DNA from: an uncultured Candidatus Saccharibacteria bacterium
GTDB taxonomy: Bacteria; Patescibacteriota; Minisyncoccia; Portnoybacterales; UBA2143
Assembly: GCA_964629675.1 (NCBI GenBank)
Contig: CAZVUG010000011.1
Coordinates: 1-51,316 of the forward strand
Reading direction: 5' to 3'
DNA: 51,316 nucleotides
The number at the start of each line of letters is the position of its first letter. The stretch's first letter is position 1. Below, one piece after another: positions 1 to 13,208 of this stretch. Below the pieces are notes generated by a model that was not told the DNA's origin, searched no databases, and saw only the letters and a program-made list of their open reading frames with translations. The translations under genes and the position numbers were made by a program.

Positions 1-168
1 GAGGGCAGCTGGGGTATAAGAAGTGATTTTCTCGACGCTGGCAACCTCTTTTGGTCGGCTACTACCAAATCCGGTGGTACCCACTACGCTTGGTTCGTCT
101 ACTTGCACTACGGCTACACGACCTACCCTGATAAGACTCGTGAGTATGACTCCCGTTGTGTCCGGTAG
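1..168 (+). CDS. 3' end of DGR1 target protein (C-type-lectin-like / DUF1566-type variable C-terminus), truncated by the window edge
   Basis: Frame +1 is open from base 1 to TAG at 166-168: EGSWGIRSDFLDAGNLFWSATTKSGGTHYAWFVYLHYGYTTYPDKTREYDSRCVR*. It has the FWS..T....AW.V....G......K.....RCVR pattern of CLec-fold DGR targets and contains VR1. It is absent from the ORF track because it has no start in the window. Confidence 0.92.
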   Translation, partial: EGSWGIRSDFLDAGNLFWSATTKSGGTHYAWFVYLHYGYTTYPDKTREYDSRCVR

Positions 169-182
169 TTCTGGCCATAATT
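35..182 (+). repeat. DGR1 variable region (VR1) with IMH-like 3' end
   Basis: Ungapped alignment to 774-921 (offset 739) gives 21 mismatches, 19 of them at TR adenines. Confidence 0.95.
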
Positions 183-236
183 TGATAATTCGATGATTTA
201 ATTATTCAATTATTTTCTTCATTTCTTCATTTTTTC
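181..236 (+). repeat. Degenerate 8-nt periodic T-rich repeat downstream of VR1
   Basis: tttgataa|ttcgatga|tttaatta|ttcaatta|ttttcttc|atttcttc|attttttc. Confidence 0.6.
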
Positions 237-239
237 ATT

Positions 240-602
240 ATGTCTCGTTATTTCCACATTCCAATTTTTCAGCAAGGATATGATTTGAATTTGCAAATCT
301 ACCGAACAACGCATAATTTTCCCCGGGAGTATAAATATACTTTGGGACAAGAATTGAAAAAAGTATCAAGCGAGCTTTTGGACTATATTGTCAAAGCCAA
401 CCAGAAAAGGGATAAAGATCTCTGTTTTGCCGAAATAAGAAGCCGGATTGAACGTTTGCGAATCTATTTTAGAACAGCCTATGATTTGAAAATAATCAGA
501 ATTGAAAAATTTACCTATTTCAGCCGAACTTTAGAAATGATTGCCAAACAAAATGCTGGCTGGGAAAATTGGTTCTTTGATAAAAAAAGGGAAGTTCAAT
601 GA
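240..602 (+). CDS. avd: DGR accessory variability determinant (Avd-like four-helix-bundle protein)
   Basis: 120 aa basic helical protein with IFQQGYDL...NFPREYKYTLGQEL...LRIYFR...GW motifs; lies between VR1 and TR1. Confidence 0.9.
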   Translation: MSRYFHIPIFQQGYDLNLQIYRTTHNFPREYKYTLGQELKKVSSELLDYIVKANQKRDKDLCFAEIRSRIERLRIYFRTAYDLKIIRIEKFTYFSRTLEMIAKQNAGWENWFFDKKREVQ

Positions 603-603
603 A

Positions 604-773
604 GCCAGAATTCTTATTCAGCTCTAATGAAAGTTAAAGCGAATAAGGAGCGAGCAAAAAAATTATGGCGATTCCGTTTTCCATTAATAAAATCAATGGA
701 ATAAAGTATTGATCAGCCATACCTTGCTTTGGCAAGGATTGGCTGAGTTAAGAAGAAATAGCGGAAATATCTC
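604..773 (+). ncRNA. Structured 5' leader of DGR1 template RNA
   Basis: Hairpins at 613-647, 679-701 and 713-746; helix 672-678/760-766; motifs GCCAGA, GAGCAAA, GCGATTCC and GCGGAAATAT shared with the DGR2 leader. Confidence 0.65.
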
Positions 774-921
774 ACGCTGGCAACAACTTTTGGTCGGCGA
801 CTACCAAATCCAATGATACCCACAACGCTTGGAACGTCAACTTGAACAACGGCAACACGAACAACAATGCTAAGACTAATGAGTATGACTCCCGTTGTGT
901 CCGGTAGTTCTGGACATAATT
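774..921 (+). repeat. DGR1 template region (TR1)
   Basis: AAC/AAT-rich copy of VR1 with 13 AAY codons in the VR frame; non-coding position between avd and RT. Confidence 0.95.
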
Positions 922-2104
922 AATCTTTGTTCTTTGGCTTCCTTGGATTTCTCTTTAATTGAAAATAATTAAAGTTTTCATCAGCTGGCTGAAGATAAGC
1001 TTTCAAAACTTGAAAATGTTTTTGGTAAAGGGATTTTCTTAATTTAAAAGTGTTAGCATGCTTAAATTGGCCGTAATAAGAATTAATAACCGAAAGAATT
1101 TCAGTAAGCTGCTTATTAAAAATTTTGGCATTTTTCGGCAGGGGATTTTGATTAAACTGCCACAATTTTCTCTTGAAATTACCGACTATTCGCCGGCGAA
1201 TTAAAGAATAATGAGGCTTGATTATGAAGCCGACAAAATTAATTCCTTGATTGACGGAGCGGAGAATTGTTTTATCGGGATGAAGTTTTAAAGCAAGTTT
1301 TTCTCTAAGAAAATTATCAATTTGCTTGGACCAATCTTTTAATTGCTGCTGATTTTGGCTGAGGATTAAAAGATCATCAACATACCGTAAATAATATTTA
1401 ATTTTCAATTGGTGTTTTACAAATTGGTCTAGCTCGTTTAAATAAACATTAGCAAAGAATTGGGAAGTTAAATTACCAATCGGCAAACCTTGATTTTGCG
1501 GAACTTTGAAAAGAGATTTATGGCTAGGAATTAGCTGAAAGAGCTTTAGGTCTCCCTTGGCGTAAAAATCCTTAGTCGGATCTTGAAAAATAATTTTCTG
1601 GGCTAGCTGGAGAATTTCCTGATTATGAAGATGTTTTTTAATTAATGCAAAAAGGATGTCTTTCTTCAGAGACATAAAGAAAGCGGAGACATCAGCTTGG
1701 AGATAATAAGCCGGCTGGGAAAAATTAAGGCTGATTTTTCTAAGAAATTTCCTTAAATCTTTAATCGCATAATGAGCTCCTTTGCCTTTGCGGCAGGAAT
1801 AAGAATGGTGGATAAATTTTCTTTCCCAAGTTGGCTCTAAATATCTGACTAGAAGATGATGGATGATCCTGTCTCTGAAATCAGCGGCAAAAACTTCGCG
1901 AGGCTTTGGCTGGGTAACGACAAAACAGATTGATTGGCCGGGATAATAAGCTTGTTGCTGCAATTCTGATTCCAGTTTCAGCAGTCCTTTTTCAAAAGAC
2001 AATTCAAATTTAGCTGCCTTAACAGTTTTTCTCTTTCTTCGCCGGCATTGGTAGTAGGCGATTAAGAGATTCTGGAAAGAAAATAATTTAGATTGGCTAG
2101 CCAT
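920..2104 (-). CDS. DGR reverse transcriptase (RT1), antisense to TR1
   Basis: KPREVFAADFRDRIIHH, SYSCRKGKG, GLPIGNLTSQFFANVYL, YLRYVDD, INFVG; 394 aa with no endonuclease domain; adjacent to a TR/VR pair. Confidence 0.95.
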   Translation of the reverse strand: MASQSKLFSFQNLLIAYYQCRRRKRKTVKAAKFELSFEKGLLKLESELQQQAYYPGQSICFVVTQPKPREVFAADFRDRIIHHLLVRYLEPTWERKFIHHSYSCRKGKGAHYAIKDLRKFLRKISLNFSQPAYYLQADVSAFFMSLKKDILFALIKKHLHNQEILQLAQKIIFQDPTKDFYAKGDLKLFQLIPSHKSLFKVPQNQGLPIGNLTSQFFANVYLNELDQFVKHQLKIKYYLRYVDDLLILSQNQQQLKDWSKQIDNFLREKLALKLHPDKTILRSVNQGINFVGFIIKPHYSLIRRRIVGNFKRKLWQFNQNPLPKNAKIFNKQLTEILSVINSYYGQFKHANTFKLRKSLYQKHFQVLKAYLQPADENFNYFQLKRNPRKPKNKD

Positions 2105-2253
2105 TCATTATATTTTAAAACATGTTTAAAATTAATTTATCAGCCAAGGATTATAAAGAAATTACGATGATTTATATAATCACTCATAATGAGTTTAAAA
2201 AAAATTATTATTTAGCAAAGGTCGGTTAAAAATAATGTAAGTTGTTAATAATT

Positions 2254-2919
2254 ATGATTAAAAAAGAAATATTAAAAAAGAATGAAAAATTAATTAAAAT
2301 TCTGCTGATTATTGCTATCCCGATAGCCATTGCCAGCATCGGCTATTTTTTAGTTAAAGCGCAATCAGTTTCTGATGATTTTACGACTGATGACAATATC
2401 GCTGATACTTGGCAGACAACGGTAGCGACTAGCACAGGAGAGGTTACTTTAGAATTAAGAGATTGCGATGTCGGAGAGGGAATTTGGTTTTGTAATGCTT
2501 CAACTACCTGCGCTAATTATTTGGGCGATGGCGATTATATCTTAGTAGCGCAAGATGACCTGGGGACGACCAAGCAGTGGAAAACCGCTAAGACAGCCTG
2601 CGATCAGCCTGAATGCGGAATCAAAGGAGGTAACAATGGAGATAATTTAGTGGCTGATAACACAGTTGATTTCAGCACTAATGGCTATAATGCGCGGGAT
2701 GCCTGTAAGGCGATTGGCGGTAGATTGCCGACTAAAGATGAACTTGATTGTATTTATGACCATAAAGCTGATTTTGGAAATAATTTTGCTGCCAGCCTCT
2801 ACTGGTCAAGCACGGATTTCTCGGCGGAGCACGCCTGGGTACAGAGCTTCACGACTGGTACTCAGGGCATCTACAATAAGACTCGCAGCACCTACGTTCG
2901 TTGCGTTAGGGGCTGGTAG
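2254..2919 (+). CDS. DGR2 target protein: N-terminal TM/signal, Cys-rich linker, DUF1566/Lcl-like CLec domain with VR2
   Basis: Hydrophobic LLIIAIPIAIASIGYFLVKA; ARDACKAIGGRLPTKDEL; YWSST...AWVQSF..G...K....VRCVRG. ATG at 2254 is preferred over the TTG at 2242. Confidence 0.92.
   Translation: MIKKEILKKNEKLIKILLIIAIPIAIASIGYFLVKAQSVSDDFTTDDNIADTWQTTVATSTGEVTLELRDCDVGEGIWFCNASTTCANYLGDGDYILVAQDDLGTTKQWKTAKTACDQPECGIKGGNNGDNLVADNTVDFSTNGYNARDACKAIGGRLPTKDELDCIYDHKADFGNNFAASLYWSSTDFSAEHAWVQSFTTGTQGIYNKTRSTYVRCVRGW
2783..2913 (+). repeat. DGR2 variable region (VR2)
   Basis: Ungapped alignment to 3134-3264 (offset 351) gives 18 mismatches, 17 at TR adenines. Confidence 0.95.
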
Positions 2920-2920
2920 G

Positions 2921-2967
2921 TTTGAAATTTGTTAATTTGACATCTTGAGTCTTTAAAATTTTAAAAT
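2921..2967 (+). repeat. Degenerate 8-nt periodic T-rich repeat downstream of VR2
   Basis: tttgaaa|tttgttaa|tttgacat|cttgagtc|tttaaaat|tttaaaat. Confidence 0.55.
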
Positions 2968-2972
2968 TTTTA

Positions 2973-3133
2973 TCTATGGCCAGATCTTTCGGATGTGAAT
3001 TTCATTAGCACCGAAAGGAGAGCAAAGCATACCTACCGCGATTCCTGCTGCCTCGGTAAGAAGCGGGGCATTGTAGGTCAAAAGGTCTTTCATGATATCG
3101 TCAGACCTTTGGAGAAAATTTGAGTGCGGGAAT
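2973..3133 (+). ncRNA. Structured 5' leader of DGR2 template RNA
   Basis: Hairpins at 2986-3017, 3049-3070 and 3081-3110; helix 3041-3048/3126-3133; closing stem 2973-2980/3285-3292. Confidence 0.65.
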
Positions 3134-3264
3134 ATTTTGCTGCCAGCAACTACTGGTCAAGCACGGAGAACTCGGCGGAGAACGCCTGGAAACAGAACTT
3201 CACGACTGGTAATCAGAACAACAACAATAAGACTAACAGCAACTACGTTCGTTGCGTTAGGGGA
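3134..3264 (+). repeat. DGR2 template region (TR2)
   Basis: AAC-rich copy of VR2 with 11 AAY codons in the VR frame. Confidence 0.95.
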
Positions 3265-3301
3265 GATGGGTAGGCTTAGCTAATGCCATAGACCATTAAT
3301 T

Positions 3302-3682
3302 ATGCAAATAAGTAATACTAAAATTTACTATAAGCTGTATTTGCTGACAAAACATTTTTACTTGATAGTTAAAAATTTTCCCAAGGAATATAAATATGAA
3401 TTAGGCAGAGATATAATCAGGTTATCGTGGCGTTGTCTTGACTTATCGCTTGAAGCCAACTCAGCCCGAAATCAAGATAAAAGAATAAAAATAACAGAGT
3501 TAAATAAAGTTTATGAAAAATTAAAAATGAGAGTTAGAATGAGCCAAGAAATTAATTTAATTACAATCAATCAATTTGCGCATATTGAAGAATTTTATTT
3601 GCTTGAAATTGGTCGCATGATTGGAGGATGGAAAAAGTGGTCGGAAGATAAAATAGAAAAAAGGCAAGCAGTTGCCAATTAA
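3302..3682 (+). CDS. avd: DGR accessory variability determinant (Avd-like four-helix bundle)
   Basis: IYYKLYLL...NFPKEYKYELGRDI...LKMRVR...EIGRMIGGWKK; immediately upstream of RT2. Confidence 0.92.
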   Translation: MQISNTKIYYKLYLLTKHFYLIVKNFPKEYKYELGRDIIRLSWRCLDLSLEANSARNQDKRIKITELNKVYEKLKMRVRMSQEINLITINQFAHIEEFYLLEIGRMIGGWKKWSEDKIEKRQAVAN

Positions 3683-3696
3683 TAAATTATGGATTT

Positions 3697-4869
3697 ATGG
3701 ATATTTTGACATACAGTAACTTGTACCGCGCTTACTTGGATTGCCGAAAAACAAAACGCAAAACCGCTAACGCTTTAAAATTTGAAATTGATTTAGAACG
3801 TAATTTAGAAATATTATTATCAGAGCTTAAAAGCAAAAAATATCAGCCAGGCCGTTCAATCTGTTTTGTGGCCACCAACCCTGTTCCCAGGGAAATATTC
3901 GCGGCTGAATTTAGAGACAGGATTGTTCATCATTTATTAATTAGAGAAATATTACCCATTGGAGAGCGTAATTTCATTTTTGATTCTTACGCTTGCCGCA
4001 AAAACAAAGGAACGCACCAGGCGATTAATCGGCTAAAAAAATTTATTAGACAAACTACGGGCAACGGAAACAAAAATGTTTTTTATGCCCAATTGGACGT
4101 CAAGGGATTTTTTATGGCTATTGACCAGCGAATTTTATATAATTTAACAAAAAAGTTAGTCAAGAAACAAAAAAGACCGCAACATTGGAAGCAAGATGTT
4201 TTATGGCTGACAAAAAATATTATCTTTCATAATCCAGCGGAAAATTATATAACCAAAGGGGATCCTGCTTTATTCAATCTAATCCCAACGCATAAATCAT
4301 TGCGTTGCCAGCCCAAAGGCAAAGGACTGCCAATCGGTAATTATACTTCTCAGTTTTTCGCCAACTTATATCTAAATGAATTAGACCAATTTATAAAAAG
4401 AAAACTTAAGAGTAAATATTATATTCGTTATGTTGATGACATTATTTTACTAGATGCTGATAAAGAAAAATTAAAATATTTAAGGAATAGAATTAATAAT
4501 TTTTTAATGAAAAACCTAAGATTAGAATTAAATGTAAATAAAGTTCGCTTTCAACTTTTAGTTAAGGGAATAGATTTTTTAGGGTATTTTGTTAAACCTG
4601 ATTATGTATTAGTTAGACAGAAAGTAATTAAGCGGCTGAAGAATAATTTATTTAAGATGAGTTTTGCTAATTTTAAATTTTTAAATAAACAAATGTTTTT
4701 AAAAAGAAACTTAGCGATGATTAATTCTTATTATGGCCATTTTAACCATGCGCAAAGTTTTAATTTAAGAAAAAATATCTATAATAGCCATTTAGCAGAA
4801 CTAAGAAATATTTTTTTGCCCAAGAAAGGATTTAGTTGCTTAAAAATAAATAATAAATATGTTGCCTGA
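3697..4869 (+). CDS. DGR reverse transcriptase (RT2)
   Basis: PREIFAAEFRDRIVHH, DSYACRKNKGTH, GLPIGNYTSQFFANLYL, YIRYVDD, IDFLGY. Confidence 0.95.
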   Translation: MDILTYSNLYRAYLDCRKTKRKTANALKFEIDLERNLEILLSELKSKKYQPGRSICFVATNPVPREIFAAEFRDRIVHHLLIREILPIGERNFIFDSYACRKNKGTHQAINRLKKFIRQTTGNGNKNVFYAQLDVKGFFMAIDQRILYNLTKKLVKKQKRPQHWKQDVLWLTKNIIFHNPAENYITKGDPALFNLIPTHKSLRCQPKGKGLPIGNYTSQFFANLYLNELDQFIKRKLKSKYYIRYVDDIILLDADKEKLKYLRNRINNFLMKNLRLELNVNKVRFQLLVKGIDFLGYFVKPDYVLVRQKVIKRLKNNLFKMSFANFKFLNKQMFLKRNLAMINSYYGHFNHAQSFNLRKNIYNSHLAELRNIFLPKKGFSCLKINNKYVA

Positions 4870-7483
4870 AAATAAAAATAAAATAAATCAGCGCTTTTTA
4901 AATATCCCTACTAATATATTTATGGGCCTGTTTGTAGTTTATTTGTTATTTTTTGCCGGCGTGATTGTTGTAAAAGCTGATGATTATCATAAACAAGGCG
5001 CTTTGCTATCAACAAATCTGTTAAGCGGGCTGGAAGATGTGGCTATTATCCAATCTTTTGAATGTACTGCGGATGTGCCTGCCTCGACTACTTTAAGTGT
5101 GACTTTTTCGCAAGACGGGACTCATTGGGTTAATCAATACGGTTATAAGGGTTTTTATGATGATTGTTCAGACGGCTCTACGACAATTGATCTAACTGCC
5201 TTGGAATGGACTGACGCTAATTTTTACTACAAACTTAAACTTGAAACTGCCAGCACAACTTTGACGCCCACAGTTAGCGGCATTCAAGTTAATTACTCTG
5301 ATAGTTATACGCCGCCAGCTTCTGGGCAGGACGGTTATTATAAACAAGGAACAGTGCTTTCGACTGATTTATTAGAAGGGATAGATTTAAATTTCAACGG
5401 TACGGAAAAATTTGGCTATCAAATTGATTCATTGCCGGCTGGGACGACAGTTCAAGTGCAATTCAGCCAGGATAGCGTTAATTGGTATAGTTCAACTAGC
5501 ACTCTCTGGGCTTGGGATACTTTGTCAGCAGGCGATCATTCTAATGCTGCCAGCGCAGTTGATTTATCAGAACTAAATTGGATTAGAAACAGTTTTTATT
5601 ATAAATTAAAATTTACTACTTCTGATAGTAGCCAAACGCCGGTTGTTAGCGAGATAAAATTATTAAGAAGCAGCACCTCTATTGATGATGATTCACCTGA
5701 TTTTTCAGAAGGGGTTGATGATCCCACAGGCAGCGCGCCTACTCCCTTTATTTCAACAATCATGGAAAACCCTGAATTAGGCCAATTCAGCAAGCTTTTT
5801 GACTGGGAAGCAGAGGTAGAATGCGACCTGACAGCCACGACCACCAGGGTTTTTTCCGGTTCCTTTACCGGAGCAGTCAATCACGGCGACACTGTCACTT
5901 GTGTCAGTGGAGGCATACACAATGGAATTACTGCTCGCGTTGTCTCAACAAGCACCAGCCAGCTTTTGCTGGATAATGCCACTTCTTCAGAAGCGGTTAT
6001 TCTCTCGGCTGGCGATAAATGGCAGGTAGATGGCGATAACTACTTTGCTCTTGCCGGCTCGGCCAACGAATTAGGCGATACTGCATATGCGGTGGCGAAA
6101 ATAGATGGAACCTGGTCTGCTGCCGACACCACGGCTGTGACCATTGACGGCTGGGAAACAGACGCCGATAACTATATCAAAATTTACACCACCAAGACAG
6201 CGAGGCATAATGGCAAGTGGGATGAGGGGAAGTATAGGATTGAGACTTTAGTTGACACTATTGTAAACCAAGAAGATTATGTGCGAGTTGAAGGTCTACA
6301 AATATATACAGAAGATAAAGGTTATATAAATTATGGAGATGGCGAGTTGCACTTAAGCTATTGTATAATTAAATCAGATGGTGGTGATGGTAGTTATGGT
6401 GTATATTATTTCGGAGATCACACTTCTACATTTAAGATGTGGAATAACATAATTTATGATTTTAATGGGACAAGTAGTTATTGCGTCTGTAGAATTGAAG
6501 GCTATTCTTATTGGTACAATAATACTGTTTATAACTGTACTGTTGGTTTTTCGGGTTATACAGGGGACGGAATATTAGTAGCGAAAAACAATATAACTCA
6601 AAGCTGCACGACTGGGTATGACAATTCAAGCTATTATGATACCCACTCCCATAACATCTCATCAGACGCTACATCGCCAGATGCGGCGTATCAGAACAAG
6701 AATGTTTCTTTTGCCGATGAGGATGGCGATGACTTTCACTTGGCGGGGAATGATGCGGCGGCGCGCAATGCCGGGGTGGATTTGTCTGCTGATGCTAATT
6801 TGGCTTTTTCTGATGATATTGATGGGGAAGAAAGAGGTTATCGGGGCTGGGATATTGGCGCGGACGAGACCTTTAAGTCCCTGATGATTAACACTCCCCA
6901 GAGAAAACGCCTCACAGACGGCTTAGTCGGCTACTGGACCTTTGACGGTCCGGATATGGACTGGTCATCTACCACGGCTGAAGTATTGGACCAAAGCGGA
7001 CAAGGCAATGACGGCGATGTGACCAATATGTCACAACAGTCTGTCGCCTCTGGTATCTCCGGCCAAGCGTTGGACTTTGACGGCGTGGATGATTATGTGG
7101 ATGCGGGGAATCTTGGCAGCGGAATTAAAACAATAGCTTTCTGGCTTAAGGCAGACGACATAACTAGCCGTAAGATTATTAATATAGACGGAACAGATCA
7201 AATTGAGATTGATGGCAGTAGTGATATTCAAGCAACCAGTTTTCCAAACGCAACTATTTATGTAGACGGAGCAGTTGCATCAACCATAACCGATGATTGG
7301 CACTTTGTTACTATCACAGATAGCACTGGAGTTAACGCTTCAACGATGAACATTGGGCGTGTTTCAACATCATATTTCGATGGCCTTATTGACGAAGTGC
7401 GGATATATGACCGAGCGTTGAGCGTGGATGAGGTTGGGGAGTTATATCGATCTGGATCAAGAAGATATAAGATTAAGCAATAA
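4859..7483 (+). CDS. Large secreted/surface protein: two tandem N-terminal repeat domains, beta-helix-like middle, C-terminal LamG/concanavalin-like domain
   Basis: Signal-like GLFVVYLLFFAGVIVVKA; duplicated KQG..LST.LL.G...FSQD...W...FYYKLK...TP.VS.I; WNNIIY/YNNTVY and WDIGADE; GLVGYWTFD...ALDFDGVDDYV...FDGLIDEVRIYDRALS. The start could be the ATG at 4922. Confidence 0.8.
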   Translation: MLPENKNKINQRFLNIPTNIFMGLFVVYLLFFAGVIVVKADDYHKQGALLSTNLLSGLEDVAIIQSFECTADVPASTTLSVTFSQDGTHWVNQYGYKGFYDDCSDGSTTIDLTALEWTDANFYYKLKLETASTTLTPTVSGIQVNYSDSYTPPASGQDGYYKQGTVLSTDLLEGIDLNFNGTEKFGYQIDSLPAGTTVQVQFSQDSVNWYSSTSTLWAWDTLSAGDHSNAASAVDLSELNWIRNSFYYKLKFTTSDSSQTPVVSEIKLLRSSTSIDDDSPDFSEGVDDPTGSAPTPFISTIMENPELGQFSKLFDWEAEVECDLTATTTRVFSGSFTGAVNHGDTVTCVSGGIHNGITARVVSTSTSQLLLDNATSSEAVILSAGDKWQVDGDNYFALAGSANELGDTAYAVAKIDGTWSAADTTAVTIDGWETDADNYIKIYTTKTARHNGKWDEGKYRIETLVDTIVNQEDYVRVEGLQIYTEDKGYINYGDGELHLSYCIIKSDGGDGSYGVYYFGDHTSTFKMWNNIIYDFNGTSSYCVCRIEGYSYWYNNTVYNCTVGFSGYTGDGILVAKNNITQSCTTGYDNSSYYDTHSHNISSDATSPDAAYQNKNVSFADEDGDDFHLAGNDAAARNAGVDLSADANLAFSDDIDGEERGYRGWDIGADETFKSLMINTPQRKRLTDGLVGYWTFDGPDMDWSSTTAEVLDQSGQGNDGDVTNMSQQSVASGISGQALDFDGVDDYVDAGNLGSGIKTIAFWLKADDITSRKIINIDGTDQIEIDGSSDIQATSFPNATIYVDGAVASTITDDWHFVTITDSTGVNASTMNIGRVSTSYFDGLIDEVRIYDRALSVDEVGELYRSGSRRYKIKQ

Positions 7484-10040: not shown

Positions 10041-13000
10041 ATGCCTAATAAATTTAATTTTCAATTACCTGATCTTATTGAGGTTCAAAAAAATTCCTAT
10101 CGTTGGTTTTGGGAAAAAGGCCTGAGAGAATTGCTGGATGAAATTTCGCCAGTTAAAGAATGGGGAGGAAAAAATTTAGAACTTCATTTTCTAGACTACC
10201 GTCTAGAAGAACCTAAATATGATGAGTTTGAAGCCAAGGTTCATAATGTTTCTTATGAGGCTTCTTTGTACTGCCGAGTAAAATTAGTTGATACAAAAAC
10301 AAAACAATCAAAGGAAACAGAAGTTTTCTTAGGTGATTTTCCCCTGATGACCGATCGCGGCACTTTTATTGTTAATGCAGTTGAGAGAGTCGTTATCTCC
10401 CAGCTAATGCGTTCGCCGGGGGTTTTTTTTGTTTCTCAGGTTCTCAAAGGAGGACAGTTTTTTGGCGCCAAAATTATTCCTAATCGGGGAGCTTGGCTTG
10501 AATTTGAAACAGACAGTGATGGAGCAATTGGCGTTAAAATTGACCGTAAAAGAAAAGTGCCGGCAACGTCAGTCTTGCGCGCTTTCTGGGCGATCGAACA
10601 GACCCATCCAGCTAAAAGGGAAATTGGCAATGAAGAGATTAAAAAGCTTTTTGCTGATATTAACAAAGGTGAGACCGACTATATTGAATCTACTTTAAAT
10701 AAAGATCCGGCTAAAACTGTCGGTGATTCTTTCGTTGAAATCTACCGCCGCATCAGGCCAGGCGACTTGGCGACCGAAGATAATGCCCGCAGCTTTATTG
10801 AGGCAATGCTTTCTTTCGAAAGATACGACTTGAGCGAGGTTGGCAGATGGAAATTCAACCAGAGATTAGAATTAGAGAAATTGAATAAAATTACAGAAGC
10901 AGAAAGAGTTTTGCGTTTTGCTGATATTGTCAAAGTAGTCAGAGAAATTATTAAGTTTAATAATAATCCTTTAGCTCAACCGGATGATATTGATCATTTA
11001 GGCAATCGCCGAGTAAAAAGTTTTGGCGAACTTTTGCAGAATAAATTAAGAGTCGGTCTTAGCCGAATGGAAAGAATTATTAGAGACCGCATGTCAACTT
11101 TAGAAGAAGATGAGCTAGGCCCGGGACAATTAATTAATGCTAAGCCGTTTATGGCTTCAATTAAAGAGTTCTTTTCTTCTTCACAGCTTTCCCAATTCAT
11201 GGATCAGCGAAATCCTTTAGATGAGTTGGAGCATAAACGTCGATTCTCGGCAATGGGCCCAGGCGGCTTAACTAGAGAAAGAGCCGGCTTTGAAGTTAGA
11301 GACGTCCATTCCAGCCATTACAGCAGAATTTGCCCGATTCAGACTCCAGAAGGACCTAATATCGGTCTAGTTGGCCATTTAGCCAGTTGCGCTCGCTTAA
11401 ATAAATATGGCTTTATTGAAGCTCCTTACCGAAGAGTTATTAAGGGCAAATTAACTAATGAAATTGTCTATTTAGACGCTTTAGAGGAAGAGAAATATAA
11501 TATTGCTCATGGCGGTACGCTAATTGACCAAAAAGGAGAAATTGTCGGCCATGAAGTAGAAGCTCGAGTCCACGGACAGCCAAGCACAATTGCTAAATCT
11601 AAAGTTAATTTTATTGATGTCTTACCGCAGCAGTCAATCAGCATTGCTACTTCTTTAATCCCTTTCTTAGAGCATGATGATAGCAACCGTGCCCTGATGG
11701 GATCTAACATGCAGCGGCAGGCAGTTAGCTGCGTTAAGCCGCAAGCGCCTTTAGTCGGTACTGGCATAGAAAGAAAAGCAGCAACTGATTCAGGCCAGGT
11801 AGTAGTTGCTGAAGAAGATGGCAAAGTAGAAGAGGTTGATGCTGAACATATCGGCATTAAAATTAAAAATTCAGCCAAAATTAGAAGATATCCTTTGCGT
11901 TCTTTTTTAAGAACCAACCAATATACCTGTATCTGCCAAATCCCTTTAGCTAAAAGAGGGGATAAAGTTAAAAAAGGAGACGTTTTGGCCGACGGAGCAG
12001 CGACTGATAAAGGGCAGTTATCTCTTGGCCAGAATCTTTTAGTTGCTTTTATGTCTTTGCGGGGAAGCAATTTCGAAGACGCTATTATTATTTCCCAAAA
12101 AGTAGTTAAAGATGATCGCTTTACTTCAATCCATATTGAAAGCTTCAATTGCGATGTCAGAGAGACTAAATTAGGCCCGGAAATAACAACGCCGGATATT
12201 CCTAATGTCGGCGAGGAAAAGCTGAAAGACTTAGACGAGGAAGGTATTGTCCGTATTGGCGCAGAAGTCGGGCCAAAAGACATTCTTGTCGGCAAAATTT
12301 CTCCTAAAGGAGAAACTGATTTGACTGCTGAAGAAAGATTATTGCAGGCTATTTTTGGCGAAAAAGCCAGAGATGTTAAAGATACTTCCTTAACAATGCC
12401 TCATGGCAAAAGAGGCCGCGTTGTTAATATTCAAGTCTTTTCTCGGGACAAAGGCGATAAATTGCCAGCTGGAGTTATTCGAAGCATCCAGGTAGAAGTA
12501 GCTCAATTGCGCAAAGTTTCAGTCGGAGATAAATTAGCCGGACGCCATGGTAACAAGGGGGTTATCGCTAGAATCTTGCCGGAAGAAGACATGCCTTATC
12601 TGGCTGACGGAACTTCAGTCGAGATTGTTTTAAATCCTTTAGGCGTTGCTTCGCGAATGAATATTGGTCAGATTTTGGAAACTCATTTAGGCTGGGCAGC
12701 AAATGCTTTGGGAATTCAGATAAACAGCCCGGCTTTAGCTGGTCTAAGCTCAGAAGATATTAAGGAAAAATTAAGAAAAGCTGGTTTGCCGGAAGACGGT
12801 AAAGTAACTTTGTATGACGGCCGTAACGGAGAGCCTTTTGAACAAAGGATAACGGTTGGTTATATATATATACTAAAGCTTCTTCATTTAGTAGAAGATA
12901 AGATACACATGCGCTCAATCGGCCCGTACTCTTTAATTACGCAGCAGCCTTTAGGCGGCAAGGCGCAATTCGGCGGACAAAGATTTGGCGAAATGGAAGT

Positions 13001-13208
13001 CTGGGCTTTAGAAGGCTATGGATCAGCTCATACTTTGCAGGAAATGCTGACAATTAAGTCAGATGATATTAGCGGCCGAGCAAATGCTTACGACGCAATC
13101 ATTAGAGGAAAGAAAATTGAATCAGAAAATGTTCCAGCTTCTTTTAATGTCTTATTAAACGAGCTTAAGTCAATTGGCTTAGACGTAGAATTGGTTGGTG
13201 AAAAATAA
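10041..13208 (+). CDS. rpoB: DNA-directed RNA polymerase beta subunit
   Basis: [42 protein letters not shown]. The ORF track starts at TTG 10035. Confidence 0.99.

Follow-up and report, generated by a model that had tools for sequence, protein, structure and literature searches.

Two adjoining DGRs of different ancestry in a small-genome bacterium, each with a conserved structured RNA domain upstream of its template repeat

Known DGRs and the layout of the locus

Current understanding of priming, processivity and target restriction in DGRs comes from one phage element, whose essential RNA comes after the template. For BPP-1, with the order mtd-avd-TR-Sp-brt, two reports describe Sp as a structured, protein-binding, priming RNA of 140 nt located 3' of the template repeat (TR) (10.1101/2023.10.23.563531, PMC6182149), and the first of them describes pairing of the 3' codons of avd with RNA beyond the TR. 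The DGR of Legionella pneumophila has the target LdtA, of the DUF1566 or 'CLec2' class of variable repeat (VR) (PMC5758913). Bacteria with tiny genomes are also known to invest in DGRs, sometimes in several, that vary surface-binding proteins. Among CPR and DPANN organisms, Wu et al. (2018) describe a 'CPR set' with the architecture B3, TR-(avd)-RT, and Roux et al. (2021) a clade 2; four DGRs occur in nanoarchaeal genomes described by Paul et al. (2015). Published work also covers genomes that have several DGRs, and elements whose TR and RT lie on opposite strands (PMC5758913, PMC4372165, PMC10907252).

The window analyzed here was the 51,316 nt of contig CAZVUG010000011.1, from an assembly of an uncultured bacterium (GCA_964629675.1). 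Two DGRs adjoin at positions 1-4869, each with an RT, a bAvd protein, a TR, and a VR that forms the 3' end of a Lcl_C gene. This confirmed the preliminary description of two RTs, two Avds and two TR/VR pairs within 4.9 kb: the open reading frames were located where it had put them, and had Pfam matches.

The gene orders had also been described correctly. DGR1 has the order VR-avd-TR with an inverted RT. It begins with a C-terminal fragment of target 1 (1-168, plus strand, 55 codons), the reading frame of which is open at its 5' end, where the start of the window is also the start of the contig. The avd1 gene (240-602, plus strand, 120 aa; Pfam bAvd 55.6 bits, cut-off 40) follows, and RT1 (920-2104, minus strand, 394 aa; RVT_1 68.6 bits, cut-off 29.6) is convergent with avd1, its RNA and TR1. 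RT1 and target 2 are divergent, with a gap of 137 nt in the ORF map (2105-2241) between their starts. DGR2 has the order VR-TR-avd-RT, and all of its ORFs are open: the target 2 gene (2242-2919, plus strand, 225 aa; Pfam Lcl_C 43.2 bits, cut-off 34.9), avd2 (3302-3682, plus strand, 126 aa; bAvd 61.0 bits, cut-off 40) and RT2 (3697-4869, plus strand, 390 aa; RVT_1 72.3 bits, cut-off 29.6). Both units had been called complete, which stands in that each has all four component types, but the target gene of DGR1 is truncated at the contig start.

The RT active site is intact in both units, with a YVDD motif and the stretch IGNLTSQ in RT1 and IGNYTSQ in RT2. The NCBIfam model DivGenRetAVD scored 60.9 bits with Avd1 and 65 bits with Avd2, both below its cut-off of 80. 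No DGR-RT-specific model in NCBIfam matched the RTs; the best match was a group II intron RT, far below its cut-off. The model retron_St85_RT gave 60 and 54.1 bits against a cut-off of 235, which indicates that these are not retron RTs.

Both units resemble the BPP-1 element in having an RT and an Avd, adenine-specific transfer from TR to VR, and a target with a C-type-lectin-fold C-terminus. They differ from it in that a conserved structured domain is located upstream of the TR in both units, and in that there is no downstream Sp with an Avd-binding stem-loop and a priming adenosine: TR1 is followed by antisense RT1 coding sequence from 920, and TR2 by 38 nt before avd2. RT1 is also convergent with its TR, unlike the RT of BPP-1. 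With the CPR and DPANN elements, as far as these are described in the sources cited above, the locus shares a small-genome host, several DGRs per genome, odd gene orders, and TR and RT that are not always co-oriented. Neither unit has the B3 architecture as defined in the text of its source, since avd2 is on the same strand as TR2 and RT2, and RT1 is reversed, though the supplementary architecture tables of PMC5758913 may list both orders.

The pairing itself is therefore a tidy and expected example, because multiple DGRs and opposite-strand TR and RT are already in print. The two units, of different ancestry, occupy about 1% of an assembly of 0.5 Mb. What is less expected is where the RNA lies. 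Very probably, these are two self-contained DGRs of different lineages, each diversifying its own membrane-anchored Lcl_C protein, with an RNA scaffold 5' of the TR. Each RT would copy its own TR RNA by adenine-mutagenic reverse transcription, and the cDNA would home into its own VR, so that the C-type-lectin-like C-terminus of its own target is varied.

Template repeats, variable repeats and target proteins

TR1 (774-921, plus strand) and VR1 (35-182, plus strand) are both 148 nt long and 86% identical, and 19 of their 21 differences are at TR adenines. In the second pair, TR2 (3134-3264, plus strand) and VR2 (2783-2913, plus strand), 130 nt (3134-3263 and 2783-2912) are 87% identical; with position 2913/3264 counted as well, there are 18 differences, 17 of them at TR adenines. 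These base-by-base counts reproduced the adenine-specific mismatches described previously, and the bias was significant in both pairs (hypergeometric p 2e-9 and 1e-8). Nearly all TR adenines fall at codon positions 1 and 2 (43 of 44 in TR1, 41 of 44 in TR2), and there are 10 AAC codons in TR1 and nine in TR2. Both VRs end, in frame, at the stop codon of the Lcl_C ORF. At the 3' ends of VR and TR, where IMH and IMH* would be expected, the two copies remain identical after the last adenine difference for 34 nt in pair 1 and 21 nt in pair 2, and then diverge. A GC-rich inverted repeat was not found after VR1, and the fold around the end of VR2 had a z of -2.9; such repeats are reported in only 34% of DGRs (PMC5758913).

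TR1 resembles TR2 over 56 nt, at 70%. When the whole assembly (17 contigs, 494,614 b) was searched, TR1 matched only VR1 and TR2 only VR2, as had been noted within the locus, and the same was true when only non-adenine positions were scored. The search with each TR, which the preliminary description had proposed, recovered no remote VR elsewhere in these contigs.

The description of the target C-termini as CLec folds held for both proteins, which are Lcl_C or C-type-lectin-like, with a structural match for target 2. The model of target 2 (pLDDT 85.4) has an N-terminal hydrophobic helix at residues 15-42, and its Foldseek matches included 8q4e, the C-terminal domain of Legionella Lcl (E 1.2e-5; phmmer E 6.8e-7), as well as the C-type lectin domains of mannose-binding protein, mannose receptor CRD-4 and CD23. 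The 55-aa fragment of target 1 scored 28.3 bits with Lcl_C, below the cut-off of 34.9. The 5' part of this gene was not found on the other 16 contigs; its orthologues in genomes G020 and G380 are 463 aa and 409 aa long, and both have an N-terminal hydrophobic stretch. The family Lcl_C is PF07603, which we take to be the former DUF1566, and the targets resemble LdtA of L. pneumophila, to the extent that its class is described in the source cited above, in this family, in the fold match to 8q4e, in a VR at the extreme C-terminus, and in a YVRCVR-like motif at the end of the target. Unlike LdtA, they are small and have an N-terminal membrane helix, and neither is a lipoprotein; the host genome is about 0.5 Mb, and the gene orders differ from that of the Legionella DGR.

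Variation in the population was viewed through assembled Logan contigs from data sets X1 and X2, and from X4, which belongs to an unrelated study; such contigs drop rare variants. TR1, TR2 and VR2 each had a single form, and a contig of 120 nt in both X1 and X2 was identical to positions 794-913 of TR1. The TR1-templated VR had at least two further versions, which differed from TR1 only at adenines. The depth of the contig was about 10, compared with 21.5 and 37.2 for these versions, each of which also has 37 nt outside the window; they may come from further target genes or from co-resident strains rather than being alleles of target 1.

These contigs bear on whether only one unit is now active, with DGR2 (or DGR1) an intact-looking silent copy, so that the locus would be a single DGR and a relic. 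VR2 had one form inside a 3.6-kb contig in both X1 and X2, while VR1 was split among variants, and only 34 nt separate it from the break of the contig, as such a reading would have it. This is nevertheless rather unlikely, considering the open frames and YVDD motif of DGR2 and the ease with which rare variants escape contigs. The 17 adenine differences between VR2 and TR2 indicate that VR2 was rewritten in the past, and in P0001, a homolog of target 2 with 81% identity, about 14 of 15 differences in the VR stretch, counted by eye from the alignment, fall at codons with TR2 adenines.

Ancestry of the two units

RT1 and RT2 are 47% identical to each other, and Avd1 and Avd2 31%. The RT phylogeny proposed in the preliminary description was inferred for 39 RTs and placed the two in different supported clades: RT1 in a clade of 11 rows (support 99), beside the RTs G020 and G056a, and RT2 with that of G003 (support 95), although both fall within one larger clade of 19 rows. 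Constraining RT1 and RT2 to group together cost 77 lnL (p-AU 1e-7), in a test for which the group was named after the tree had been seen. RT1 is 73% identical to the RT of G020, and the G020 locus has the same layout. G020, G023 and G028 share the DGR1 order, VR-avd-TR with a convergent RT, and G003 has the DGR2 order, VR-TR-avd-RT; the loci of all four, which hold the nearest RT relatives, have their own adenine-biased TR/VR pairs. The earlier view of the two DGRs as independent was thus borne out by the divergence of their RTs and Avds, by the rejection of a joint RT tree, and by gene orders that recur in the relatives of each.

It is extremely improbable that the adjacency is an assembly chimera of the DGR loci of two strains, or a recent tandem duplication. 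The contig does end inside target 1, and the same sample holds VR-like contigs from other genomes, as a chimera might lead one to expect, but in both X1 and X2 the independent Logan assembly contained one contig that covers 884-4498 with 0 differences, and with it the junction at which a misassembly had been considered. In X4, contigs covered 1923-2190, which includes part of the gap between RT1 and target 2, and other pieces of both units. Tandem duplication was ruled out by the RT identity and the AU test given above.

Two units of different RT clades located 1.6 kb apart were found in one of the 68 RT-bearing genomes sampled. A second genome with paired units, G343, has them about 7 kb apart. 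In the G020 cassette, genes for a GIY-YIG and a PD-(D/E)XK nuclease have been inserted.

RNA upstream of each template repeat

Immediately 5' of each TR is a conserved, strongly covarying RNA of about 190 nt that folds into four helices, and the two copies are homologous. Domain 1, with helices P1 to P4 in the RNAalifold structure, spans 594-793 on the plus strand and ends about 20 nt inside TR1, and domain 2 spans 2969-3156 on the plus strand and ends about 22 nt inside TR2. In six loci, RNAalifold found 38 pairs, 28 of which had compensatory changes. Across 11 matches, 93.3% of cells pair, compared with 40-46% when partners were slid, and 36 of the 38 pairs change on both sides, values reached by 0 of 500 shuffles, in an alignment (A2) that was fitted to the structure of the model and so favors it. 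The model of this RNA, R1, scored 169.7 bits with domain 1, which was used in building it, and 51.3 bits (E 6.5e-12) with the DGR2 copy, which was absent from training. A weak but correctly placed copy was found in G003 (18.3 bits). Among 151 genomes of the class, R1 matched only four places in three genomes, each of them adjacent to a DGR RT or no more than about 1.4 kb from one, and no Rfam family matched positions 1-5200 at E up to 1. The 3' end of the domain overlaps the start of the TR in all six loci with a mapped TR. A published survey of conserved RNA elements, as described in the available part of its text, covered the 40 nt before TRs and the 100 nt after them.

In DGR1, the RNA domain and TR1 are enclosed by a helix of roughly 20 bp, P0, between 588-607 (plus strand), which includes the last codons of avd1, its stop codon and 5 nt, and 934-955 (plus strand), which is antisense to the last RT1 codons. 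Read by eye, the two strands pair at 19 of 20 positions, three of them as G.U, and none of 200 shuffled controls was as stable as the observed -25.0 kcal/mol. P0 was found in all four close DGR1-type loci (DGR1, G020, G133 and G227), with 0 of 200 controls in each, though the letters differ from locus to locus; this duplex resembles the 'cPRT stop' duplex of BPP-1 between the 3' codons of avd and RNA beyond the TR. P0 was not significant by shuffled controls in G023, G028, G303, G148 or G120. The DGR2 counterpart is a weak candidate of only 8 bp, between 2973-2980 and 3285-3292 (both plus strand), which was equaled by 12 of 200 shuffles and has its 5' strand outside avd.

Because P0 is at the DNA level an inverted repeat that flanks the RNA-TR module, and because this module remains intact among relatives that differ in the positions and strands of avd and RT, the 5' element could in principle lie outside the DGR RNA, as a separate regulatory RNA or terminator, or as inverted repeats at a site of inversion or mobility; the inserted nuclease genes of G020 would suit such a site. 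This is very unlikely. On the opposite strand, the G.U pairs read by eye in P0 (3 in G000, 2 in G020) would become A-C mismatches, the helices show covariation in place of sequence conservation, the domain abuts the TR in every mapped locus, and the codons at the 3' end of avd in the Bordetella phage likewise pair beyond the TR, as reported in 10.1101/2023.10.23.563531.

The favored reading is instead that the 5' domain would serve as a scaffold that binds RT and Avd. If so, it explains how the scrambled gene orders found here can work, it marks out the actual unit of transcription, which in DGR1 runs antisense into the end of RT1, and it provides two natural, diverged RNA-protein sets for tests of specificity. 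With an RT, an Avd, a scaffold RNA, a TR and a VR of its own, each unit most probably works as a channel distinct from the other. The two machineries had previously been described as either orthogonal or cross-acting. The flow from template to target is orthogonal by sequence, while on the enzyme-RNA side the homology of the two scaffolds might let an RT-Avd use the RNA of the other unit. Cross-action, in which either RT-Avd uses either TR RNA, would make the pair a matter of redundancy or dosage rather than of two channels. The same four helices in both 5' domains, and the placement of both RTs in the 19-row clade, are compatible with it. We consider it unlikely, given that the DGR2 RNA scored only 51 bits on the DGR1-type model, compared with 141-170 bits for the six training sequences, which match by construction, that the Avds are so divergent, and that layout follows RT clade in both units. 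Sharing of enzymes would still leave each cDNA a single place to home to, its own VR.

In retrons, the msr-msd RNA has a structured part 5' of the template, is closed by terminal inverted repeats, and carries the primer-side strand upstream. The RNA described here is similar in topology only; the RTs are of another kind, and the product is homed into a VR. In the favored reading, the priming site may be set by pairing of the 3' limit of the TR with a strand located between P1 and P2. The primer side would then be upstream of the template, in a retron-like topology, and not, as in the Bordetella phage, in a spacer that follows it. It is possible, and we propose it tentatively, that a small-genome, CPR-like clade uses a permuted DGR RNA, with scaffold and primer strand 5' of the template, a long helix between the end of avd and RNA that closely follows the TR, and upstream priming as in retrons. 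If this is true, the window holds two diverged versions of the RNP, a natural pair for testing how DGR channels are kept separate, and a compact RNA-TR module, around which genes can be moved, for two-channel targeted mutagenesis.

The putative duplex at the 3' end of the TR, P5, would correspond to the short duplex that adjoins the 2'-OH used in the cis-priming of BPP-1. In RNA 1, its candidate primer-side strand (661-669, plus strand), between P1 and P2, is complementary at eight of nine positions, by reading, to the template-side strand (913-921, plus strand) at the 3' limit of TR1/VR1 homology. The register recurs in six loci at offsets of 115-123. The duplex is short, and per-locus shuffle tests were mostly not significant (17 to 258 of 300), so that P5 is a candidate with positional and covariational support, assessed by eye. 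A hairpin at the 3' end of TR1 (894-920) was not conserved in any of three relatives. In RNA 2, the candidate primer-side strand (3024-3040, plus strand) pairs with 3259-3278, within the TR2 boundary and spacer before avd2 (3259-3292, plus strand), at -14.7 kcal/mol, a stability reached by 14 of 300 shuffles; the MFE fold contains this pairing too.

Two intact DGRs with exclusive repeat pairs and separate ancestry

The source assembly (G000) contains 494,614 bases on 17 contigs and is 88.8% complete; the window takes up bases 1 to 51,316 of contig C11. The map of two diversity-generating retroelements (DGRs) within 4.9 kb, as drawn in the preliminary description, was reproduced from the ORF list and a repeat finder. 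In DGR1, a 55-aa, 5'-open ORF on the plus strand (1-168), the fragment of target 1, scored 28.3 bits with the Pfam family Lcl_C, below the cut-off of 34.9. It was followed by avd1 (240-602, plus strand; Pfam bAvd 55.6 bits, cut-off 40; NCBIfam Avd model 60.9, below the cut-off of 80) and, on the minus strand, by the reverse transcriptase gene RT1 (920-2104; Pfam RVT_1). The genes of DGR2 were all on the plus strand: target 2 (2242-2919, 225 aa; Lcl_C 43.2 bits, cut-off 34.9), avd2 (3302-3682; bAvd 61.0 bits, cut-off 40; NCBIfam Avd model 65, below the cut-off of 80) and RT2 (3697-4869; RVT_1). No further RT, Avd or Lcl_C gene was found in the 17-contig assembly by tblastn. There was no compositional sign of recent import, the GC content being no different in 1-4869 (35.3%) and in the rest of the window (36.6%). 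Neither promoter predictions (25 vs 18.4 +/- 4.6) nor terminator predictions (6 vs 4.2 +/- 2.0) in the locus were above shuffles.

Two other features adjoin these genes. The start codon of an 874-aa ORF (4859-7483, plus strand) lies 11 nt ahead of the RT2 stop codon, and this ORF may be co-transcribed with RT2; it encodes an N-terminal hydrophobic stretch and a C-terminal Laminin_G_3/concanavalin-like domain (40.7 bits), without a variable repeat (VR). An AT-rich 30-nt direct repeat (73%) is found directly 3' of VR1 (176-213) and 5' of the target 2 start (2158-2187), and may be due to chance.

Each unit has its own plus-strand direct repeat of template repeat (TR) and VR: VR1 (35-182) and TR1 (774-921) are 86% identical over 148 nt, and VR2 (2783-2912) and TR2 (3134-3263) are 87% identical over 130 nt. 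Base-by-base comparison gave 21 differences in pair 1, with TR adenines accounting for 19 (hypergeometric p 2e-9, 47 template adenines), and 18 in pair 2 with position 2913/3264 counted in, 17 of them at TR adenines (p 1e-8, 44 template adenines); these recounts equal the numbers first claimed. The TR adenines were at codon positions 1 and 2 in 43/44 (TR1) and 41/44 (TR2) cases, and there were 10 and 9 AAC codons, respectively. BLASTN of the TRs and VRs against all 17 contigs showed that TR1 matches VR1 only and TR2 matches VR2 only; between the TRs themselves the similarity is limited to 56 nt at 70%. The two machineries had been described as orthogonal or cross-acting. At the homing step the second option falls away, because in the 17 contigs each TR is homologous to its own VR only and, as judged from these sequences, the DGR1 and DGR2 channels cannot cross there. 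No remote VR was found for either TR, whole or half, including scoring on non-A positions only, in 494,614 bases. A target gene outside the assembled contigs is possible because the genome is 88.8% complete.

RT1 and RT2 are 47% identical, and Avd1 and Avd2 31%. Counting G000 itself, RT matches were found in 18 of 41 relatives (E <= 0.001), in 12 of 59 genomes at the order level (E <= 1e-40), and in 68 of 401 sampled genomes at the class level (E <= 1e-30). A maximum-likelihood tree was built from 39 RTs, namely the two in the window and 37 full or near-full ORFs of fetched loci, leaving out duplicates of one gene and fragments shorter than ~300 aa. RT1 was placed in an 11-row clade (SH-aLRT 99), adjoining the RTs of relatives G020 and G056a, while RT2 paired with that of G003 (95). 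When RT1 and RT2 were forced together, in a group named after the tree was seen, the best tree was 77 log-likelihood units worse (p-AU 1e-7). On this result and the 47% RT identity, tandem duplication is rejected. Gene order tracks the RT tree. The two units belong to two lineages and did not arise by local duplication, and the description of the DGRs as independent holds by RT identity, tree, AU test and gene order. The locus holds two sets of RT, Avd, RNA domain, TR and VR, both intact; the sets are of separate ancestry, and each TR is homologous to its own VR only.

The DGR1 layout (VR-avd-TR, then a convergent RT) was seen again in G020, G023 and G028, each with its own TR/VR pair; adenine bias was shown for the pairs of G023 and G028. 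G020 is the closest relative of DGR1 (RT 73%, Avd 64% identical). The DGR2 layout, VR-TR-avd-RT, recurs in G003 (RT 51%, Avd 50%, target 52% identical), and other relatives have divergent avd/RT, avd-gap-RT or RT-then-avd orders. Of the 68 genomes with an RT, two (G000 and G343) had two RT matches no more than 10 kb apart on one contig. The G343 locus (L070, C10:226000-243000) has DGR units at ~4062-5952 and 11204-13083, inverted and ~7 kb apart, each with divergent avd/RT and its own TR/VR pair; their DNA is 61% identical over 1.2 kb.

Some relatives carry additional elements within these cassettes. The G020 locus (L030, C1) has two small nuclease genes on the minus strand (1584-1838 and 2295-2699 of L030): a GIY-YIG protein (84 aa, 53.4 bits) is encoded between avd and the RNA element, and a PD-(D/E)XK protein (134 aa, 96.7 bits) between VR and avd. 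Long perfect hairpins separate the TR from the RT stop codon in two relatives that share the convergent arrangement: G028 (L034), between the TR end (6167) and the RT stop (6203), and G120 (L038), where a T run comes next. These look like terminators for convergent transcription; in G000 there is no room for such a hairpin between TR1 and the RT1 stop.

Wu et al. (PMC5758913) report that several DGRs are present in ~10% of the complete genomes that have any, that TR and RT can occupy different strands, that DGRs have 48 architectural variants, and that 90% of a CPR set is TR-(avd)-RT. Four distinct DGRs have been reported in a nanoarchaeal genome (Paul et al. 2015, PMC4372165), CPR and DPANN are among the organisms having multiple DGRs (Doré et al. 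2024, PMC10907252), and a CPR-restricted DGR clade has been defined (Roux et al. 2021, PMC8144416). The preliminary observation was right and its interpretation sound, but since multiple DGRs, TR and RT on opposite strands, and CPR DGRs are already published, the two-DGR locus as first described is a tidy but ordinary case of a known kind. What the analysis adds is a putative upstream RNA scaffold common to both units and their clade.

An RNA domain upstream of each template

There is no non-coding sequence 3' of TR1, since the RT1 stop codon sits at 920-922 on the opposite strand, and the spacer between TR2 and avd2 is only 38 nt. Ahead of the TRs there are 170 (TR1) and 214 (TR2) non-coding bases. 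A consensus fold from the avd-to-TR gaps of six DGR1-type loci had 38 pairs, 28 of them with compensatory changes: a hairpin (P1) and a long-range helix (P2) enclosing two hairpins (P3 and P4), with the TR beginning ~10 nt after P2. The covariance model of this domain, R1, matched directly 5' of TR2 (2969-3156; 51.3 bits, E 6.5e-12), a sequence outside the model's input. Other copies outside the input were found in G303 (95 bits), G380 (72), G148 (42) and G120 (26), and with filters off a weak but correctly placed copy was found in G003 (18.3 bits). In the 11 R1 matches, an alignment fitted to the structure of R1, 93.3% of cells had standard pairs, versus 40-46% when partners were slid by 1-3 columns; 36 of the 38 pairs change on both sides, and none of 500 shuffles reached the observed values.

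In all six loci with a mapped TR, the element runs at its 3' end 15-38 nt into the start of the TR. It stays 5' of the AAC-rich template whether avd comes before it (DGR1 type) or after the TR (DGR2, G303, G380), or RT is convergent. In a class survey of 151 genomes with stricter filters, which may miss diverged copies, R1 matched four places in three genomes, and three of the four adjoin a DGR RT. The copy in G148 is on the same contig as the RT match of that genome and under 1 kb from it. A search of 1-5200 with Rfam 15 gave no match at E up to 1; this covers the RT-associated motifs of PMC5737381, provided that they are in that release. In the parts of the DGR literature covered, no description of an upstream RNA element was found; as far as the portion covered goes, one survey (10.1101/2023.10.23.563531) folded 40 nt upstream and 100 nt downstream of TRs and reported stem-loops downstream.

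One candidate structure at the other end of TR1, an 11-bp hairpin at 894-920 (z -2.1 to -2.5), was considered as an IMH* or terminator because the VR1 copy folds less well. It was dropped as a general feature because the equivalent segments of G020, G227 and G133 fold no better than shuffles. The hairpin is specific to G000, and the proposed model does not include it.

Helices around the template and a proposed mechanism

A closing helix around the RNA domain and TR, P0, was found in DGR1, where 588-607 pairs with 934-955 (-25.0 kcal/mol; 0/200 shuffled controls as stable). Its 5' strand takes in the final codons and stop codon of avd1 plus 5 nt, and its 3' strand, 13 nt beyond the TR1/VR1 homology, is antisense to the last RT1 codons. 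Read from the strands by eye, 19 of 20 positions pair, and three of these are G.U, which point to a plus-strand RNA pairing rather than a DNA feature. The same helix occurs at the same distance, with different letters, in G020, G227 and G133 (0/200 controls each); these pairings, like those of P5 below, were read by hand from the strands, MAFFT having misaligned the P0 3' strand in G133. In G020 the GIY-YIG gene parts avd from the RNA element, and the P0 5' strand remains beside the element, not avd. P0 was not significant by the shuffle test in G023, G028, G303, G148 and G120, and the DGR2 version is only 8 bp (2973-2980 with 3285-3292; 12/200 controls as stable). P0 corresponds to the avd:Sp duplex of the Bordetella phage DGR (10.1101/2023.10.23.563531).

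A second, hypothetical pairing, P5, would join the strand just before P2 with the 3' limit of TR/VR homology: 661-669 with 913-921 in DGR1, and 3024-3040 with 3259-3278 in DGR2 (-14.7 kcal/mol; 14/300 shuffles as stable). Across six loci of the DGR1 clade, the best partner fell at offsets 115-123, with covarying letters (pairs read by eye). P5 is kept as a hypothesis because per-locus shuffle tests were mostly not significant (17 to 258 of 300 as stable); in the DGR1 of the window the energy-based search chose another site. The geometry is that required for priming, in that the 3' end of the upstream strand abuts the template base just inside the TR. The upstream strand runs on into P2, and priming from P5 could occur only by a 2'-OH branch, predicted to lie in 667-670 (DGR1) or 3037-3041 (DGR2). 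Priming by a 2'-OH branch is found in the phage DGR and retrons. The sole pair-1 difference beyond the variable part, A at 914 in TR1 and C at 175 in VR1, falls within the proposed P5 duplex, and the VR1 letter, not the TR1 letter, would pair with G668.

In the proposed mechanism, transcript 1 would be plus-strand avd1-RNA-TR1, extending ~35 nt into the antisense of RT1, and transcript 2 would be plus-strand RNA-TR2-avd2-RT2; RT1 would have to be transcribed from the 137-nt gap common to RT1 and target 2. The predicted plus-strand RNAs span ~588 to ~955 for DGR1 and ~2970 to ~3295 or further for DGR2. The folded 5' RNA domain of each transcript would bind its own RT-Avd, and P0 and P5 would carry the 3' limit of the TR to the RT active site. 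The RT would then copy the TR into cDNA, misincorporating at adenines, and this cDNA would take the place of the cognate VR. If the upstream RNA functions in this way, this is a DGR organisation of a new variant type.

Repeat variants in sequencing runs and the target proteins

Population data were Logan assembled contigs from four sequencing runs (X1-X4), rather than per-site allele counts. X1 and X2, with near-identical results, may be the source sample. In both, a single contig covered 884-4498 with no difference, including RT1, the 137-nt gap, target 2, TR2, avd2 and part of RT2. X4, from a separate study, contributed a 268-nt contig (1923-2190) as well as fragments of both DGR units, and X3 had pieces of DGR2 only, at depth 2-3; uncovered parts (all of DGR1 in X3, most of VR2 in X4) were excluded as evidence. 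A misassembly across 2104-2254 had been named as a possible source of the two-unit arrangement. A chimeric assembly of the two DGRs is very unlikely, because the long X1/X2 contig bridges the join and the X4 contig on 1923-2190 reaches into it.

VR2 had a single form, inside the long contig, and the VR1/TR1 region was broken into short pieces. One short contig was identical to TR1 794-913. Another, on 48-130, had 12 differences, those listed (85, 86, 94, 100) being at positions templated by TR1 adenines, and a third, on TR1 787-891, had 15, all listed ones A-to-N. These contigs indicate that the sample has at least three VR versions, written from TR1 or a near-identical template. The variant contigs have depths of 21.5 and 37.2, compared to ~10 for the contig, and 37 nt of each are off the window, so the extra VRs could be alleles, further target genes on unassembled DNA, or from co-resident strains. 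The contig starts 34 nt 5' of VR1, consistent with assembly having broken off at variable sequence. Summed contig depth in X1/X2 was 45-72 at 3133-3306 and 1393-1566, versus ~10 elsewhere, and loose ends were numerous; related TR/VR and RT sequences are evidently carried by other organisms of the sample.

When four orthologous target proteins were used as queries, none of the other 16 contigs yielded the missing 5' portion of target 1. Target 1 is probably a larger, membrane-anchored protein, because its orthologs in G020 (463 aa) and G380 (409 aa) have a hydrophobic stretch at the N-terminus and an Lcl_C domain at the C-terminus. A structure model of target 2, from an alignment of 56 sequences out of 2,719 representatives (E <= 0.001), had a mean pLDDT of 85.4, rising to 94-98 in the final 80 residues, with residues 15-42 forming a long N-terminal helix. 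The top Foldseek match was the Legionella Lcl C-terminal domain 8q4e (E 1.2e-5, TM to target 0.63), which phmmer also matched (E 6.8e-7), followed by a Bdellovibrio C-terminal domain, mannose-binding protein, mannose-receptor CRD-4, CD23 and FGE-like enzymes. The VR codes for the C-terminal 43 residues of the lectin-like domain. P0001, a representative protein with 81% identity to target 2, had 15 differences from it in the VR stretch, ~14 of them at TR2-adenine codons (read by eye), which indicates that DGR2-type writing took place after the lineages of P0001 and target 2 parted.
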